DNA of 16,490 bases from an uncultured Pseudomonadota bacterium. Its GTDB lineage: Bacteria; Oederibacteriota; Muellerivitia; Muellerivitales; Muellerivitaceae. How positions within the stretch are numbered: position 1 is the first letter of the stretch; each line of letters opens with the position of its first letter. This document shows positions 6,001 through 12,000 of this stretch, one piece after another. Made by a program: the position numbers. The DNA lies in NCBI GenBank assembly GCA_963843375.1, contig CAWJKT010000012.1:1-16490 (forward strand), given 5' to 3'.

Positions 6001-9000
6001 CTCAATTGGATTTTCTGACCGCCGCCCTCAGCCGAGCGAAAAGCGAAAAGTACCAGGGAGCGTTGTTGATCGCTTCCCACCATCCCTCCTATACCATCGC
6101 CAAACACGGATGGAGCACCCTCATGACATCGCAAATCGACGCCATCTGTAACAAGGTTGGGCTATGGCCCCACGCTTTCCTAGCGGGCCATGCTCATAAT
6201 TATCAGCGATTTACCCGTACCCGTTCGAACAACACCGAAATTCCCTACATCGTCTGTGGAAATGGTGGACATGGGCTTCAACGCTTGTCCAAGGTAGGAA
6301 CTCCTCTTCGCACCCCACAAGTTATACAGAACGCTTCGGGCTCCAATGACCAAGTGGTTTTCGAGAATTATGACGACGGCGATTACGGCTATTTACGGGT
6401 CATCGTGACAGAGAGCCAATTGCGCATTGAGTATCACCCGGCAAGTGACGGAGAAGCCGCGAAGACCCCGGATGATTCTGTAACGGTTGATCTCCAAAAG
6501 CGGATCCTCACCCAATACACCGCTCCGGATCTCGGCCGACCACAGGTCGCCCAAGCAATCCGGGCCTTCCGGAACCAGACCAAACCCTCAAGGTCGGTGG
6601 GTAAGAGGAGAAAAAGGAAATAACAAAAACACTAACTTTACCTGTGCCGGCCCCGTAGATTAAATGGCTTTGGTTCCAGGCGGACTGGCTTTTTAGAGAG
6701 GGGAGCGTCAATATGGCCCGTTTCAATCTTTTCCTCCGCATTATCCAAGCCCGGCGGACGCCCCTTCGTCAACCCATACAGGCTGGTTCATGTGGTTTGG
6801 GATCTTTCTGGTTTTATCCGAGAATTTGGCCCCTTCGACAAAAGGCCTGACAATCCAGCCCCTCCGGACCCTGGTTTCCGTGGTGGCAAAGCTCTTGCCA
6901 GCCCGCAATGAGCTTTTCGAACCCCTTTAAGAGTCTCCAGCCAATACCCAGTTTTTGGCAAATGGTCTAAAATAATGCCTGGATTCCAGCCTGAAATTGG
7001 GAGTTATCCATTTAGGCCCTTTTGAGAGTAATAAAAGCCCTTTCCTCAATTAAAAAATGGAATAAAGTGCTTATTCAAAAGGCTAATCTCTAGGAGGATG
7101 TTTGGAAGACCGGGAGTTGGTTGAAAAAATACTCCAGGGGGACGAGGGGGCCAAGGCTCAATTCTATACCCAATACCGGGAACGCCTTTACAAGGATTGC
7201 GTTTTTCTGTTGGGCTACCGAGACCCGGAAGCTGAAGATTTGGTGCAGGAAGCCTTCCTGATCGCCTTTAAAAAACTTCCTTCTTTCGAATTTCGCTCTT
7301 CGCTGGGCACCTGGCTGACGCAGATTGGAATTTACCTTTGCTACAACCGCTACCGCAACCGGGCCCGGATGGTGTTGAAGGAAGAAGAAAACCTGGAAGG
7401 CCTTTTGAGAACGAAAGCCATGCAAGGAGAAATCCAAAAATCCCGGGAGGAGGACAAACAACTCAAGCTGCGGCTAATTGACCGGGGTCTGGAGAAGATA
7501 GGGCCCGAATGCCGGGAGATTGTAGTTTTAAGGGATAAAGAGGAAAAAACTTATATTGAAATCGGGAAGGCGCTGAAAATCCCCCTGGGTACGGTGATGT
7601 CCAGGCTGTCGCGTTGCAAAAAGGCACTGAAAGTTTTGATCGAACAAATGCTTCGAGAGGGATGAGATGGCGGATTTGATAACTGAATTTTTCGAACGGG
7701 AGTTGACTGAAACGGAAGCCGACTCCCTGGGCGACCTCTTGAGGGAATCGCCTGACGAAACCCTTCGCTTCGAAGGCCTGCTGGAAGGCCATTACCTTGC
7801 GACGGGGTTGCCGTCCCCCCAATTGCCCGCCTCGCTCCTCAAGCTTCCCCCTTCCCCAGGGGGATGGGGTGGCGCGGGTGGTTTGAAGCTTTTGTTCCTT
7901 TTGGGCGCGGCCGGGTTGGGTTTGCTTGCATGGAAATTCCGCCCCATAACTTCTTTCTTTCAACCTGCCGCTATTCCGGCCTCCGCGACTCTTTCCCAGT
8001 CACCGGTCTTTTCAACGGCTCCTAAGCCGGTCAATACCTTACCCCAGCCAGCCAATGCGGCTAAATCTGAACCGGTTCAACCGCAGGAAGCGGGCCCTGT
8101 AGCGGAGGGGGAAGAATTAAGCGTGGAAGTTGGAACCCAAGAAAAAACCCTTATAACCGTGCGGGTACTCAATCACGAGGGCAAGGAAATCTGCGATATT
8201 TATACCGGTTTCGTCCAACCAGGCCAATGGTCCTTCCGGTGGAATGGCAACCTTGCCGATGGCATGCCGGCTCCGGCGGGGGCCTATCAAATTGACGTTC
8301 AGGCGGGCGCCCTGCATCAAAGCAAAGACATCCAAATCAAGCCGAATTGATTTTGGGTTTGGTGACATTCCGTTGGGAAGCCATAATAAGAATATTCCCC
8401 GGGAGGTCTTTGGCGCGATGGGTTCAAAACGTTTCAAACTAATCTTCGTCCTTTTACTCCTAACGGCACCTTCCATTCTCCGGGCACAGGCCAATGGTGA
8501 TGGCCTCAAGGGCACCTATTTCATTAACACCAACCTCACCAGCCCGGCCGTGACCGTTGTAGATCCCTTAGTCAGCTATCGATGGTTCGGCTGTCCTCCT
8601 CAGCCGGGAATGTCGGGGACCTCCTTTTCGGTTCAATGGCTGGGTCAGGTGGATTCTTCCTATAGTGAACCCTATACCTTCACGGTTGACGTTAACGGCG
8701 GCGTGAGCGTGATCGTCAACGGCCAAGTCCTTATCAGCCAATGGACCGATTTTCCCCCGCCCGTCCGCGGCTTTTCGGGGGTGATCAGCCTGACGGCTGG
8801 CCTCAAGGTTCCCATTGAAGTGGACTATTTTACCAACGGCGCCAATCCCACTTCCGACCTGATTCAACTGGCTTGGCAAAGCCCTTCCCAAGGATATGAA
8901 TATGTTCCAAGGGAGTATCTCTTTTCGGGGGCGGCGCTGAACCCCACCCCCACGCCCCAAACGACCATGGCCTGCCAGTCGAGCGTTAGCGTGGACGGGG

Positions 9001-12000
9001 TCCTGAGCGAATGGGCCTGGACCACGCCTACGGGCTGGAACACCGTTTCCCGGCCTGTGCTGGGCAACGTCTACGGGACCACGGCGGTCTTCAAAACACT
9101 GTGGGACACATCCAACCTCTATCTCGGTGTGACAGTCACTGACAGCCAGCTCACCAACAACGGTGTCTCGGCCGTATGGGAAAACTCGGCGGTGGAGCTT
9201 TACCTGGACACCACCGACTCCAAGAGCATCACGGTCGTCAGCACCGATTTCCAATACTTCTTCGGGTGGAACGACACGGTGGCCGTCGAGGCCCTAGGAA
9301 GGACCGCTGGAGTGAGCCTGCGCACAACGACCATTTCCACCGGCTATGTTGTGGAAGCCTCCATCCCCTGGACAACCTTGGGCTTAGGGAGTCCGAGCCC
9401 CGGGATGGTGTTGGGCTTGGACGTAGGCGTGGACGTGAATCATAACGGGGGCAATTGCCGGGATGGTCAGTTAATGTGGAACGGCGGGTCGGACGATTAC
9501 GCGAACGCCAGCGATTACGGCCAACTGACCCTGACAAGCGCTTGTCCCACCCCCGTCGCAACACCGCCCGCCCCGACGAGCCTGCCTTATGTTTATCCCA
9601 ATCCCACCAGCGGTCCGGTGGTGACTTTCGTTTACACCATGGCCCAGGCGGGAACGGTTTCCATCAAGGTTTGGAACGCCTGGGGAAACCTGGCCGCCAC
9701 AATCAATGATTCCAAATCACCCGGATTGGCTTCCAGTACTTTGGACATCAGCTCTTTCGCTCCCGGTCATTATTTTTATCGAATTGAGCTCGACTATGAT
9801 TCGGGACAAAAAGACGAGTTTAAAACTCAGGTCCTGGCTATCAAGAAATGAAAAGACGAGAATTTTTACCACGAGGTTTTTCAAAATCCATTCAACCTTT
9901 CAAGTCGAAAGCCTTTCTGGGGGCTCTGGGTTCCTTCTTGGTTCAGCTTTTGTTTCCGGCTCATTCTTTTTCCCAAAATGTTTCTTCGACCGCTGGCCTC
10001 GTCACACCCTTGAGCGCATTGGGGGCCTCCGCGCGAGCGGACGCGATGGGGTCGGCCTTCGCGGGCATTGCTGACGATTCCGCGGCGCTCTTCTTCAACA
10101 GCGCGGGGCTTTCGGGCCTGGGGGACGCCCAGATCAGTCTCAACCACAACAGCTACCTGGCTGGTTCTTTCGAGGAAACCCTGCTGGTGGGGCTTCCGGC
10201 GGGGGATTTGGGCGGTTTCGCGGGTGCAGTTCAAAGTGTCTTTTGGGGAAGCCTTGATGAAAGGGACGCTTCGGGCGTCGACTTGGGAACATTCCAGGAC
10301 AACGACGTGGCCTTGAGTTTCGGGTGGGGCAAGGAATGGGCAAAGGGATTTTCCGCTGGCGTGGCCCTCTACGGGACCCAGCAAAAAATCGTGGAGTCGC
10401 TATACGACAGCCTCTCGGGACAAGCCGGTTTGCTATGGAAGGCTTCCCCCGGACTGCGGTTTGGTCTGGCCTATGCGGGGTTCGGAACCCCGGTAGCTGG
10501 TCAAGCTTTGGCGACGGACTTGAAAGGAGGAACTTCTTATTTCTTTCATCTCAGCGCGGACAAAAGTCTCTTGTTGGCCTTTACAGGCGATGCCGAACCT
10601 AATAGTGTCAGTCGCCTCCAGGGGGGGATTGAGGCGGGATACCGAAAGAATATATTCCTGAGGATGGGTTACCAGCTTCCGTTATCCAACAACCAGGTTA
10701 CCGGTTTTGATAATTTTACAGCCGGCGTGGGCATCCATTTTGATTCCATTACCCTGGATTACGCCTATGTTCCTTATGGTGATTTGGGAACTTCTAACCG
10801 AATCAGCCTGGCTTATGATTTTTCAAATCCTACCCCCGTTCCGGTCAAGCCGGTGACGGTTGTTGTGACGCCGGTTCCGATTCCCATTCCAACTGTCACA
10901 CCCGTCCCCGCAAAACCATCAGTAGCGGTCCATTTCGAGGTTCCCCTCAGCGTCGCCACGCCCGAAACCAACCCGGAGATTTTGGCCCAACTGCAACAAT
11001 ACCAAAAGGCTACAGAAGCCAATCCCCAAGATCCCGCCGCCTGGCATCGTTTGGGGCTGGCTTATTGGAAAACGGGACAGAAGGATTTGGCGGTCCAATG
11101 CCTCGAACAAGCCTTGAGGCTCGATCCTTCGGATACCCAACTGAAGGCCTGGATTGATCTGTACAATTCCAGCCAGCCTGCGAACCGTTAAAAAGTTTTA
11201 ACGTTTCTAATTATGGTTTTTTCAATGAGTTTTGCTTCGTTGACAATTTTTATTTTTTTTTTGGAATAAATCTCCCCATCCAAACACCTATCCGTTGTAC
11301 AGGCTTGTCCACTTGCCAATTGGACGGGTCCTGTCGGGGACATTAAAAGCCCTTTTTAAAAATTGATGGCGGAGATCCATGCAAGGTTCTAAATCCCGTT
11401 TAAAACGTTACATCTTTTTCCTTTTTGCCTTCCTGATGTTTTCCCCGAGTTTCTCCTGGGCCCAAACCTCCATCTATCAAAATCTCAACCTCCCAGGGTT
11501 TCGTCCCGATTTCGATATTGGTGTGTTGGGCAATGATTTCTATTTTCCTGTCGCCGGGAAAGTTTAGATTTTTGAAATAGAAAAAGAGAAAGGCTAAGGA
11601 TGCTGTGGCGGGGAAGGAAGACAAAGGGCTTTGTCTGGGCACCTTCCCCCCACGGCACTTTAAAAAGAGTCTGCATTTAAATTAGGGGGATGACTAAGAG
11701 TATTGTTTGGGAACCCTTCCAACTGCGGTCACCTTTTGCCCCATTGGTTTGTGAATAGCAACAGGACTTTGGTTGCACCCAAGGTCCCAAAAAATTGGAG
11801 GTGGCTCAGATGACCCTGAAAAAATTGAAGGCTTTAACCCTGATCCTCGGTTTTGGTTGCTTCGTCTCATCCGCTTGGGGCCAAACGGTCACCGTTAATC
11901 CCGGTACCACCTATCAAACGATCTCGGGTTTCGGTGCTTCCAGTCAATGGGACAATTCATTCTCGTCCTCTCTCGCTAACAATTTTTGGGCTGACGATTC

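Follow-up and report, generated by a model that had tools for sequence, protein, structure and literature searches.

What does an ECF sigma factor have to do with an anti-sigma factor that ends in an Ig-like domain resembling a secretion signal, and with an outer-membrane barrel encoded next to both? The question is raised by a 16,490-nucleotide stretch of DNA (the window) from an uncultured soil bacterium of candidate division FCPU426, a phylum outside the Bacteroidota. The genome-wide survey's note had placed a four-gene locus at 7102-11191, and Pfam/NCBIfam searches, AF2 models and start-codon checks found all the genes where claimed: an ECF sigma factor, an anti-sigma factor, a PA14-CBM9 protein with a C-terminal sorting domain (CTD) and a PorV-family barrel-TPR protein, all on the + strand (Table 1). 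Our literature search found no published account of a sigma / anti-sigma-Ig tail / PorV-like barrel module, which looks like an undescribed route for reporting cell-surface events and switching on plant-fibre-degrading enzymes.

Table 1. Positions of the module's genes, protein parts and promoter-like motifs in the window.
Feature	Position	Strand	Details
Promoter-like motif	7059..7087	+	GGAATAAA-N8-TCAAAAGGCTAAT; 15 nt upstream of sigma start codon
ECF sigma factor	7102..7665	+	187 aa; TTG start behind AGGAGG
Anti-sigma factor	7667..8350	+	227 aa; parts below from AF2 model and FlgD_ig match
Anti-sigma N-terminal three-helix domain	7667-7840	+	
Anti-sigma TM helix	7880-7936	+	predicted single pass
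Anti-sigma Pro-rich linker	7937-8110	+	
Anti-sigma FlgD_ig-type Ig-like tail	8111-8347	+	
Non-catalytic carbohydrate-binding protein	8418..9851	+	signal peptide, PA14, CBM9, Por_Secre_tail sorting domain (Pfam, TIGR04183)
PorV-family outer-membrane barrel	9848..11191	+	NF033709 match
Barrel domain	10130-10819	+	14 strands (AF2)
Barrel Pro-rich linker	10820-10972	+	
Barrel C-terminal TPR repeats	10973-11173	+	two repeats
Second promoter-like motif	11263..11291	+	GGAATAAA-N9-CCAAACACCTAT; 23.4 bits (PWM); in front of hemicellulase gene
GH30 (XynC-like) hemicellulase	11795..15250	+	1151 aa; GH30, malectin, PT-rich linker, CBM3, C-terminal sorting domain (Pfam, NCBIfam)

The sigma factor carries Sigma70_r2 (E 7e-12), r4 (E 1e-8) and also r4_2 domains and scores 80 bits against TIGR02937 (cut-off 43). 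One base past its stop codon lies the ATG of the anti-sigma factor, whose AF2 model has three N-terminal helices (pLDDT about 90), a further helix at residues 72-90, disorder at 92-148 and a beta-sandwich at 150-224 (pLDDT above 90); FlgD_ig matches residues 149-213 (E 2.6e-9, 37 bits). No anti-sigma Pfam family matches the N-terminal domain, and the charges that flank the TM helix in the sequence give no clear prediction of a C-terminus-out orientation; we infer both the anti-sigma role of this product and its C-terminus-out topology. The PA14-CBM9 reading frame spans 8244-9851, with a likely start at ATG 8418, preceded by GGGAGG and followed by the signal peptide, and its stop codon overlaps the barrel start as ATGA. 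The barrel belongs to the PorV/PorQ family (NF033709, 97 bits, cut-off 90), is modelled by AF2 with 14 strands and 4 helices, and has F. johnsoniae PorV as its best PDB fold matches (8gl6_F, E 6e-13; 6h3i_F, E 3e-11).

The genome holds three further paralogous modules (C16:26482-29552, C11:291140-293825 and C6:199860-203402), all present as the survey had described. The C16 order is small tail-only protein, barrel-TPR, sigma, anti-sigma; C11 runs sigma, anti-sigma, barrel-TPR, its anti-sigma gene broken by an in-frame TGA at residue 131, as in the split gene noted earlier. At C6 the merged gene call likewise stands: sigma and anti-sigma share a single open frame that also runs into an FlgE-like C-terminus, and the barrel-TPR gene follows. 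A phmmer search recovered the shared N-terminal anti-sigma motif that had been reported for the C12 (window), C16 and C11 copies; the C6 copy does not have it. For sigma, tail and barrel alike, the four copies make up a paralogue group in which relatedness falls in one and the same order (C12~C11 > C16 > C6). On the sequence evidence, then, the three-gene module is real and conserved and has been duplicated as a unit, with sigma, tail and barrel inherited together.

Conservation extends across the family. Matches to the anti-sigma family occur in 30/30 other family genomes (1-9 per genome at E<=1e-8), in good agreement with the survey, and the other orthologues of the window's anti-sigma factor (n=48) share 42-69% identity. 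We sampled 71 anti-sigma genes from the 30 other genomes with 5 kb flanks: the tail is encoded in 70, a sigma gene immediately precedes 68, and for 59 a module-type barrel gene lies no more than 5 kb away on the same strand, so that the counts of sigma and PorV-like neighbours agree with or exceed those given before. Four of the remaining 12 are cut by contig ends, and for eight no barrel was found within full 5 kb flanks. Three gene orders make up the 59 loci, namely sigma, anti-sigma, CTD protein, barrel (S-A-C-B, 24), C-B-S-A (19) and S-A-B (16), and this retention of the barrel through rearrangement argues for a functional tie. The window's own order is kept in 12/12 orthologous loci, each with a PA14-CBM9-type gene between anti-sigma and barrel (PA14 and CBM9 were confirmed in one of them, L025). 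A conserved cargo that is non-catalytic and carbohydrate-binding fits a sensor; the CTD protein of 15 of the 19 C-B-S-A loci consists of the tail alone, without a sensor domain, which for that class does not fit a surface ligand sensor.

The output of the module is suggested by a promoter-like motif. Its consensus, GGAATAAA-N8/9-T.AAAA..CT.AT, stands upstream of sigma in 13/13 orthologous loci, and the copy ahead of the window's sigma gene is the top PWM match of the genome (32.8 bits); above 20 bits there are 14 matches in the real genome versus 1 in a shuffled one. The module's sigma presumably recognises this GGAATAAA...CTAAT motif. Besides the window, 11/11 assessable orthologous loci have a copy in the interval from the barrel gene to the hydrolase gene downstream of it, and there the hydrolase position is taken by GH30+CBM3, GH30+malectin+CBM3 or GH62+malectin+CBM3. 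The window's GH30 protein, itself among the cargo-tail jackhmmer matches, is a likely regulon member. Other high-scoring copies precede four more CTD cargo genes (C6, C11 and C17 twice).

We tentatively favour, at a little short of an even chance, a trans-envelope, FecA/FecR-like signalling module in which a PorV-family barrel takes the place of the TonB-dependent transducer. The genes, folds, homologies, synteny and motif conservation described here are observed; from genomic context and structure prediction we infer the remainder, namely sigma binding, topology, docking, the direction in which docking acts (activating or repressing) and proteolysis. The ECF sigma factor would be held at the inner membrane by the small N-terminal helical domain of the anti-sigma factor, which would span the membrane once, a Pro-rich tether about 55 residues long leading on to its Ig-like domain. 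From the outer membrane, the dedicated barrel would hang its TPR domain into the periplasm on a tether of about 50 residues and would likely carry or anchor the CTD protein encoded just upstream, here the PA14-CBM9 protein, which is likely xylan/cellulose-binding. The anti-sigma tail would dock on the barrel protein, and docking would alter with the state of barrel and CTD protein (client loaded or not, or surface polysaccharide bound). Inactivation of the anti-sigma factor, for which regulated proteolysis is the probable means, would then release sigma to transcribe, from GGAATAAA...CTAAT promoters, both the operon that encodes it and the GH30/GH62 hemicellulase gene next door. Docking is proposed because the tail is homologous to cargo CTDs and PorV-family barrels are carriers of CTDs, as stated in the excerpted part of PMC10994853, and because both anti-sigma and barrel carry long tethers.

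A complex prediction with anti-sigma tail residues 140-227 and barrel-TPR residues 44-447 lends weak support to such docking, with a score of 0.53 (runs 0.52, 0.58 and 0.53) versus 0.00 for the best of three controls. Contacts are shared between the runs to at least 60%, the partner has a pLDDT of 73 or more, and the prediction yielded no interface. The mark is reached by 116/157 solved complexes and 2/215 mismatched pairs, and scores of 0.60 or below among those that pass come from only 18 of the 157 solved complexes and from both passing mismatches, counts that hold only roughly for our prediction since it used our own alignments. Moreover, because PorV-CTD complexes have already been solved, the pass may reflect likeness and not binding.

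ECF sigma factors often share operons with their own target genes, and this, together with the motif copies in front of cargo genes, allows another reading that we consider rather unlikely, if worth serious attention. The Ig-like tail would be an independent periplasmic sensor (for instance of an oligosaccharide, of a protein that is misfolded or was not exported, or of a component of the envelope) with no barrel contact, and barrel, CTD protein and hemicellulase would be the regulon of an autoregulated ECF operon. The eight anti-sigma genes with full flanks and no barrel nearby fit this, as does the occurrence of the same tail type as 8-15 tandem copies in giant proteins, which makes it a generic Ig module. 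Nor does the tail appear, from its sequence, to resemble its own module's cargo tail more than other cargo tails (mean local score 31.6 versus 28.5 for others; cognate ranks 1 to 38 of 42). A tail that never meets the barrel is, however, harder to square with a barrel that stays beside the sigma / anti-sigma pair in three gene orders, with module barrels that by their sequences form a distinct subfamily co-diversified with sigma and tail, and with the weak pass over zero-scoring controls. The same applies to the long periplasmic tethers on both partners: across module loci, 73-135 residues (median 89) separate the anti-sigma N-domain from the tail and 32-214 (median 58) the barrel from the TPR. 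The TPR tail is found on 55/59 module barrels of relatives; barrels without sigma linkage can bear TPR-like or Fn3 tails as well, and the purpose of the TPR may therefore lie in what the barrel itself does and not in signalling.

The survey's claim that the anti-sigma factor ends in a T9SS-type CTD holds in part. Aligned by hhalign with a profile of 77 cargo tails, the anti-sigma tail gives 97% probability (E 1e-10, 76 columns), and by this profile comparison it is homologous over its whole length to the genome's cargo sorting domains. What did not stand is its membership among them: none of the genome's four anti-sigma tails matches Por_Secre_tail at E<=0.01, and jackhmmer started from cargo tails recovered only 2/4 (ranks 70 and 79 of 79), missing the window and C11 tails. 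The best match is FlgD in both sequence and fold searches (profile E 5e-8; fold E 1e-4, 23% identity), with solved T9SS CTDs far lower or absent, and the closest solved relative is the Ig-like domain of the FlgD hook cap (PDB 7bhq, 7eh9, 3osv). The tail is thus its own subfamily within the cargo-CTD superfamily, with FlgD-Ig its nearest relative. Could it be a genuine FlgD-type domain through which the switch is coupled to hook assembly? We consider this very improbable: the C6 copy does lie directly downstream of an FlgE-like gene and abuts its C-terminus, but only 1/4 modules of the genome is beside flagellar genes, the module in the window is linked to xylan-related enzymes, and many secreted cargo tails of the genome also exceed the FlgD_ig cut-off. 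Unlike FlgD, the tail comes without the FlgD N-terminal or Tudor part and ends a membrane-anchored regulator.

FlgM, which acts on sigma-28, is the classical anti-sigma factor that is also a secretion substrate, and through it gene expression follows the state of the export machine. It provides the concept behind another reading, an unlikely one in our judgement: the tail would be a genuine secretion signal, captured like a cargo CTD by an SprA-like translocon and a PorV-like carrier, so that sigma activity would directly report export and anchoring capacity, e.g. via pulling and cleaving of the anti-sigma factor. FlgM, a soluble protein, is exported by the flagellar type III apparatus, whereas for the module's anti-sigma factor, held by its membrane anchor, capture or clipping is the most that could happen. 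The 76-column homology agrees with capture, as does the fact that the cargo-tail profile also scores the C6 tail and, in relatives, several classes of paralogues. The anti-sigma gene also stands directly upstream of the barrel, the usual cargo position, in 16/71 loci and, within this genome, at C11 and C6; a distant SprA-like protein of about 2000 aa, below cut-off only, occurs in 28/31 family genomes; and the weak complex pass may reflect the solved PorV-CTD mode. The tail's departures from cargo CTDs speak against capture, from the missed Por_Secre_tail and jackhmmer matches and the kinship with FlgD to the xP[NS]P motif, present in 40/76 cargo tails versus 2/48 orthologous anti-sigma tails. 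So does the protein's build, which is not a cargo architecture since it has no signal peptide or passenger domain and a predicted inner-membrane anchor. A canonical T9SS was not detected in the 31 family genomes (GldM in 0/31, PorU above cut-off in 0/31). According to the excerpt of PMC10994853, the CTD in the solved translocon binds PorV at its extracellular loops, within the pore of SprA, and an inner-membrane tail on about 55 residues would need to cross the periplasm and enter that pore.

The FecA/FecR-like reading has its nearest parallels in FecA-FecR-FecI signalling and in the ECF sigma / anti-sigma / SusC-like transducer pairs of Bacteroides PULs, as far as the excerpts of PMC11637429, PMC9249621 and PMC2709373 describe them. 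Common to all are an ECF sigma factor that regulates its own expression, an anti-sigma factor crossing the membrane once and bearing a periplasmic domain, and a dedicated barrel of the outer membrane encoded alongside; with the PULs the module also shares glycan-degrading enzymes as output. The transducers of those systems are 22-strand TonB-dependent barrels with an N-terminal signalling domain, whereas the module's barrel is a 14-strand PorV/FadL-type with a C-terminal TPR, and a Pfam scan found no TonB-dependent gene within the module; unlike that of FecR, the periplasmic domain of its anti-sigma factor is an FlgD_ig/CTD-like Ig fold.

In the T9SS, according to the consulted portions of PMC10994853, PMC12618676 and PMC9143113, PorV carries type A CTDs and cognate PorP/SprF-like shuttles are encoded beside type B CTD cargo. 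Similarly, this genome has many cargo-barrel pairs, a CTD gene typically being followed at once by its own PorV-family barrel gene, and the window's barrel has PorV as its best fold match. Here, in contrast, the barrels are of the PorV/PorQ family and not PorP/SprF, they bear periplasmic TPR or Fn3 tails, and the host is neither a member of the Bacteroidota nor from a family with detected GldM or PorU. A precedent for a T9SS CTD in signalling is the P. gingivalis PorA - PorV - PorY/PorX - SigP circuit, in which, by the partial accounts of PMC7712824 and PMC12152298, the CTD of PorA is the periplasmic ligand of an inner-membrane sensor. There, as is proposed for our module with its CTD-like tail and PorV-family barrel, a T9SS-type CTD associates with PorV and contributes to a signal that reaches an ECF sigma factor. 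The PorA circuit, as these accounts give it, has its CTD on a separate secreted protein, a histidine kinase sensor and no anti-sigma factor, while our module has the CTD-like domain within the anti-sigma factor itself and a barrel of its own for each module. In C16-type modules, the small proteins made up of a tail only recall PorA.

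The window (16,490 bases, about 51% G+C) carries its genes in a run on the + strand. The genome-wide survey's note had drawn attention to four genes at 7102-11191, an observation that is borne out and extended here. Pfam and NCBIfam models identify all four. The first product is an ECF (group 4) sigma-70 factor with sigma regions 2 and 4 only; among the equivalog models searched none reached its cut-off, and no named ECF group could be assigned. A one-base gap separates the sigma TGA from the ATG of the putative anti-sigma gene, and the barrel ATG overlaps the cargo TGA. The cargo gene most likely begins at the ATG at 8418, which has GGGAGG upstream and from which a signal peptide is encoded; its product combines PA14 and CBM9 without a catalytic domain.

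Features of the window and of other contigs (C prefix) of the same genome
Feature	Position	Strand	Remark
Secreted-looking protein, 452 aa	254-1612	+	without Pfam match
Motif site upstream of sigma gene	7059-7087
ECF sigma factor	7102-7665	+	Sigma70_r2 and r4; PF04542, PF04545, PF08281; TIGR02937 80.1 bits (cut-off 42.9)
Putative membrane anti-sigma factor, 227 aa	7667-8350	+	sole family match FlgD_ig, residues 149-213, 37.3 bits (cut-off 27)
PA14 + CBM9 cargo protein, Por_Secre_tail at its end	ORF 8244-9851	+	Pfam/NCBIfam
PorV/PorQ-family barrel, TPR repeats at C-terminus	9848-11191	+	NF033709 97 bits (cut-off 90)
Motif site before GH30 gene	11263-11291
62-aa ORF with signal peptide	11379-11567	+	MQGSKSRLKRY...SWA
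Anti-sigma gene with in-frame TGA	C11:291706-292362	+
652-aa open frame	C6:201444-203402	-
Tail-only protein	C16:26473-26865		Por_Secre_tail E 4e-9
SprA-like gene, apparently split	C15:110969-114545		frames 944 and 779 aa
CTD-barrel pairs	C4:266030-272121; C14:108635-116688; C15:31554-35148
CTD-barrel pairs	C3:34622-38535; C3:133388-139988; C28:13431-17806

The module has paralogous copies on C11, C16 and C6. In this genome its sigma factors, its tails (the C-terminal Ig-like domains of the anti-sigma factors) and its barrels each form a four-member group that stands well apart from other paralogues, with the same order of relatedness for all three; for the barrels, phmmer gave E values of 1e-182, 2e-89, 4e-42 and 2e-33 versus 6e-18 for the nearest PorV-like protein outside the group. 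The order sigma, anti-sigma, PA14-CBM9-CTD (C-terminal sorting domain) protein, barrel is kept in 12/12 orthologous loci of other genomes, and all 11 complete barrels in these loci carry TPR. When 99 genomes from across the phylum were searched, the anti-sigma family turned up in 30/30 other genomes of the same family, at 1-9 matches each, and not in the one sister-family genome; matches elsewhere were mostly weak and confined to the tail. For the 70 full-length matches we extracted 70 loci, each with 5 kb on either side; as one of them contains two modules, the set comprises 71 anti-sigma genes. The tail is present in 70 of these 71, a sigma gene lies directly upstream in 68, and a same-strand barrel of the module type occurs within 5 kb in 59. 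A barrel is missing near the remaining 12, four of which are cut by contig ends, and TPR is found on 55 of the 59 module barrels, with the locus end cutting three of the four misses. Loci with a barrel come in three gene orders (S, sigma; A, anti-sigma; C, cargo; B, barrel): S-A-C-B (24), C-B-S-A (19) and S-A-B (16). In a representative library clustered at 50% identity, 179 proteins match at E<=1e-30; of the best 150, the majority are full-length, at 200-290 aa.

A motif, GGAATAAA-N8/9-T.AAAA..CT.AT, lies upstream of the sigma gene in 13/13 orthologues (7059-7087 in the window). A position weight matrix built from the motif sites gave 14 hits above 20 bits in the genome versus one in the shuffled genome; among the best sites are some upstream of CTD cargo genes on C6, C11 and C17 (twice), and the one in the window that precedes a GH30 gene. 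A motif copy occupies the same intergenic position in all 11 orthologous loci that reach past the barrel gene, and the gene behind it encodes GH30+CBM3, GH30+malectin+CBM3 or GH62+malectin+CBM3, depending on the genome, all of them hemicellulase types. Since ECF operons are usually autoregulated, we infer by analogy that the window's sigma factor would read this motif. Because hemicellulase types lie behind the motif and the PA14/CBM9 cargo is non-catalytic, the window's module looks like a xylan-related sense-and-respond unit. The 62-aa ORF begins 116 nt beyond the first base of the second motif, and its N-terminus is similar by eye to the hydrolase start at the same position in orthologous loci (e.g. 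MQGRQISLKRY... at 9845 of L025, a locus from a relative); it looks like a remnant from exchange of the downstream enzyme gene.

The model of the 227-aa protein, made from a 47-row alignment, has the layout usual for a single-pass anti-sigma factor: three helices at the N-terminus (pLDDT about 90), another helix spanning residues 72-90, a Pro-rich disordered region (92-148) and, at 150-224, a beta-sandwich with pLDDT above 90. The coupled gene directly downstream of sigma, the short N-terminal helical domain and the single TM helix are those of a membrane anti-sigma factor. No zf-HC2, RskA or similar anti-sigma domain was matched in Pfam or NCBIfam at E<=0.01, and the PDB sequence profile search returned no anti-sigma factor at E<=1. 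Together, gene position and architecture suggest that the protein is a membrane anti-sigma factor; its C-terminus would presumably lie outside.

Two copies of the gene are interrupted. In the C11 copy an in-frame TGA interrupts the linker at residue 131 and so separates the tail from the membrane part, and the copy in L081, from one relative, has a frameshift at a similar place. Apparent in-frame stops in other relatives' anti-sigma genes were rejected, as on inspection they are terminal stop codons. On C6, a single open frame runs from a FlgE-like C-terminus through sigma to anti-sigma with no stop between the last two, the result of either a fusion of sigma with anti-sigma or a frameshift in the assembly, and the N-terminal anti-sigma motif common to the other three copies was not found in it.

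The survey's note had further proposed that the anti-sigma factor is itself a T9SS/PorV client. Homology supports this proposal in part: a profile of orthologous anti-sigma tails aligned by hhalign with a profile of 77 cargo tails of the window's genome, from which the anti-sigma tails had been removed, at 97% probability (E 1e-10, 76 columns), with only about the first 11 cargo columns outside the alignment. The sorting signal and the architecture do not support it. None of the four anti-sigma tails matches the T9SS type A CTD model PF18962 (Por_Secre_tail) at E<=0.01, a threshold reached at 22 other places in the genome, and TIGR04183 has no match in the tail. Nor does the anti-sigma factor have the cargo architecture of Sec signal peptide, passenger and C-terminal tail; it has no signal peptide, and its N-terminal helical domain is followed by a TM anchor.

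The tail does belong to FlgD_ig (PF13860), with a FlgD-like fold, and the four anti-sigma tails rank 1, 2, 3 and 5 genome-wide with this model. The FlgD_ig and Por_Secre_tail families overlap in this genome, since about 17 cargo tails also pass the FlgD_ig cut-off. A jackhmmer search started from the neighbouring cargo tail collected 79 tails, among them those of C6 (rank 70) and C16 (rank 79), and missed those of C12 and C11. With the tail profile the four tails reached 147, 84, 67 and 39 bits, and nothing else exceeded 27 bits. In a PDB sequence profile search with the tail, FlgD alone was returned (E 5e-8 to 4e-3) and T9SS CTDs were absent at E<=1; with Foldseek, FlgD came top (E 1e-4), and PorZ, PorU, the NucA CTD and the RgpB CTD followed at ranks 27-46 (E 7e-3 to 2e-2). 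The xP[NS]P motif occurs in 40/76 cargo tails versus 2/48 orthologous anti-sigma proteins and 4/136 family representatives. As the tail is homologous to the cargo tails by hhalign, yet set apart from them in the model, profile, motif and fold comparisons, it is a diverged sister of the cargo tails, a separate subfamily rather than a copy of one. Cognate mimicry, in which the tail would be most like the cargo tail of its own module, was rejected as support: over 42 tail/CTD pairs the mean local score was 31.6 for cognate and 28.5 for non-cognate pairs, and cognate cargo tails ranked anywhere from 1 to 38 of 42. For distant family members, the ESM Atlas gave matches only below 0.9, in Bacteroidota clusters that have Por_Secre_tail and one Ignavibacteriota cluster that has zf-HC2, which serve as leads only. 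Domains matching the tail profile also occur 8-15 times in tandem in giant proteins of 1250-2300 aa (P0178, P0180, P0184, P0220, P0248 and others).

The barrel model comprises a plug region, 14 strands, a disordered linker (326-371) and four helices forming two TPRs. The best two PDB folds matched are both Flavobacterium PorV from the T9SS translocon (8gl6_F, E 6e-13; 6h3i_F, E 3e-11), with FadL/TodX behind. The protein is a PorV/PorQ-family member of the FadL type, most like PorV; it does not pass the PorV and PorQ equivalog models (32.7 vs 250 and 74.3 vs 220). In all, PorV_fam matches 24 times in the genome, about 12 times above cut-off. The barrels' tails vary (none, TPR-like or Fn3), and TPR is therefore no private mark of sigma-linked barrels, an idea we rejected: TPR is marginally matched on the C14 barrel, whose partner is a 2255-aa cargo, and others have Fn3 tails. 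Many barrel homologues have a precomputed match to PF03687 (UPF0164), and a few carry an OmpA or Fn3 tail in place of TPR. PF03687 includes FadL-like outer-membrane proteins of Treponema, and TPR-like tails in the periplasm are ascribed to some of these.

Could the tail meet the barrel? Complex prediction of tail 140-227 with barrel-TPR 44-447, both with alignments, scored 0.53 (runs 0.52, 0.58 and 0.53) versus 0.00 for the best of three controls, and lends weak support to a contact. The mark used was reached by 116/157 solved complexes and 2/215 mismatched pairs; at 0.60 or under, where the tail-barrel score falls, only 18/157 solved complexes pass, together with both passing mismatches. As the prediction used our own alignments, these counts apply only approximately here. 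The runs agreed in at least 60% of contacts with a partner pLDDT of at least 73, and no interface was returned. Because PorV-CTD complexes have already been solved, the pass may reflect likeness to them. In the solved translocon, cargo CTDs bind extracellular PorV loops inside the SprA pore (PMC10994853, in part). A domain held by a tether at the inner membrane would have difficulty reaching such a site, which speaks against the anti-sigma factor as a T9SS/PorV client; in spite of the homology to cargo tails we hold that mechanism to be unlikely. A median of 89 residues, about 35 of them the pre-TM and TM stretch, separates the anti-sigma N-domain from the tail, and a median of 58 separates barrel from TPR; long tethers on both partners would thus let the tail and TPR domains meet in the periplasm. 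We tentatively prefer, at somewhat less than even confidence, a FecA/FecR-like docking of the tail on its own module's private barrel protein, in which the state of the barrel-client pair would be the input and the hemicellulase regulon the output. That the tail instead acts as an independent periplasmic sensor is a serious rival to docking, albeit one that we regard as rather unlikely.

Throughout this genome, a CTD-protein gene typically has its own PorV-family barrel gene immediately behind it, and the stop codon of the first often overlaps the start codon of the second; such pairs occur on C12, C4, C15, C14, C3 (twice), C16 and C28, and recall the cognate shuttle genes beside type B cargo in Flavobacterium (PMC12618676, in part). 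The cargo's place goes to the anti-sigma gene in the modules on C11 and C6 and in the 16 S-A-B loci. In 15 of the 19 C-B-S-A loci (which include the relatives' loci L085-L118), the protein before the barrel is a signal peptide plus sorting domain only, a precursor of 118-143 aa; a tail-only protein is also encoded on C16. Such sorting tags without a passenger are puzzling.

As for the secretion apparatus, SprA/Sov gave multi-segment matches below cut-off (best 118-127 bits vs 200) in an ORF of about 2000 aa that is present in 28/31 family genomes and in 17/17 high-quality ones. In the window's own genome this gene appears split into two frames, while relatives have it in one. Model searches found GldM in 0/31 family genomes and PorU above cut-off in 0/31, with only its CTD part matched; GldN is absent from the window's genome, which is 80% complete, and GldK has only sulfatase-maturase-like matches below cut-off there. 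The canonical motor, ring and sortase components (GldL/M (PorL/M), GldK/N, PorU) were thus not recovered with these models, which divergent forms could escape and whose GldM and GldN controls matched nowhere. With a minimal T9SS-like route made up of an SprA-like pore and private PorV-like carriers, the anti-sigma factor might be a tethered decoy substrate, a possibility we consider quite improbable. A free carrier would capture the anti-sigma tail like a cargo tail, and pull or exposure would lead to cleavage and release of sigma; each module would gauge the occupancy of its own export/anchor channel and top up its cargo, with bare tail-only proteins as competing reporters. This would be the membrane-anchored counterpart of FlgM export.

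The docking that we prefer resembles FecA/FecR/FecI in logic only: no TonB-dependent receptor or FecR domain was found among the window's proteins. Among described systems, the nearest is the PorA-PorV-PorXY-SigP circuit (PMC7712824 and PMC12152298, each in part), in which the CTD is a periplasmic signalling ligand, the double role ascribed in 2025 to a T9SS CTD of P. gingivalis. The literature searched contained no description of an anti-sigma factor with such a tail or of a PorV-like barrel in an ECF module. In its main text, the paper that reclassified ECF sigma factors (PMC7826278) mentions neither FlgD, PorV, T9SS nor FadL, and its supplements might list such an anti-sigma type; the portions of the FCPU426 literature searched yielded nothing on this module.

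If the tail really talks to the barrel, ECF signalling would gain a third type of outer-membrane partner, in addition to TonB-dependent transducers and free periplasmic sensing, and the module would be the first case of a sorting-domain-like fold built into an anti-sigma factor. It would also offer a handle on the control of secreted hemicellulases in the uncultured soil phylum FCPU426, and show how a reduced T9SS-like apparatus is organised outside Bacteroidota, with an SprA-like pore, many private PorV-like barrels and no detected GldM or PorU. The module fits the P. gingivalis report of a CTD as ligand (PMC12152298, in part), and this compact four-gene cassette, whose promoter can be recognised, makes the idea open to testing. 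The DNA datasets listed for window positions 6900-11900, with no RNA dataset among those listed, are soil and lake metagenomes. Near its start the window also encodes the secreted-looking 452-aa protein, which has a very high content of Gly, Ser, Asn and Trp, with WWGG/WWW runs.
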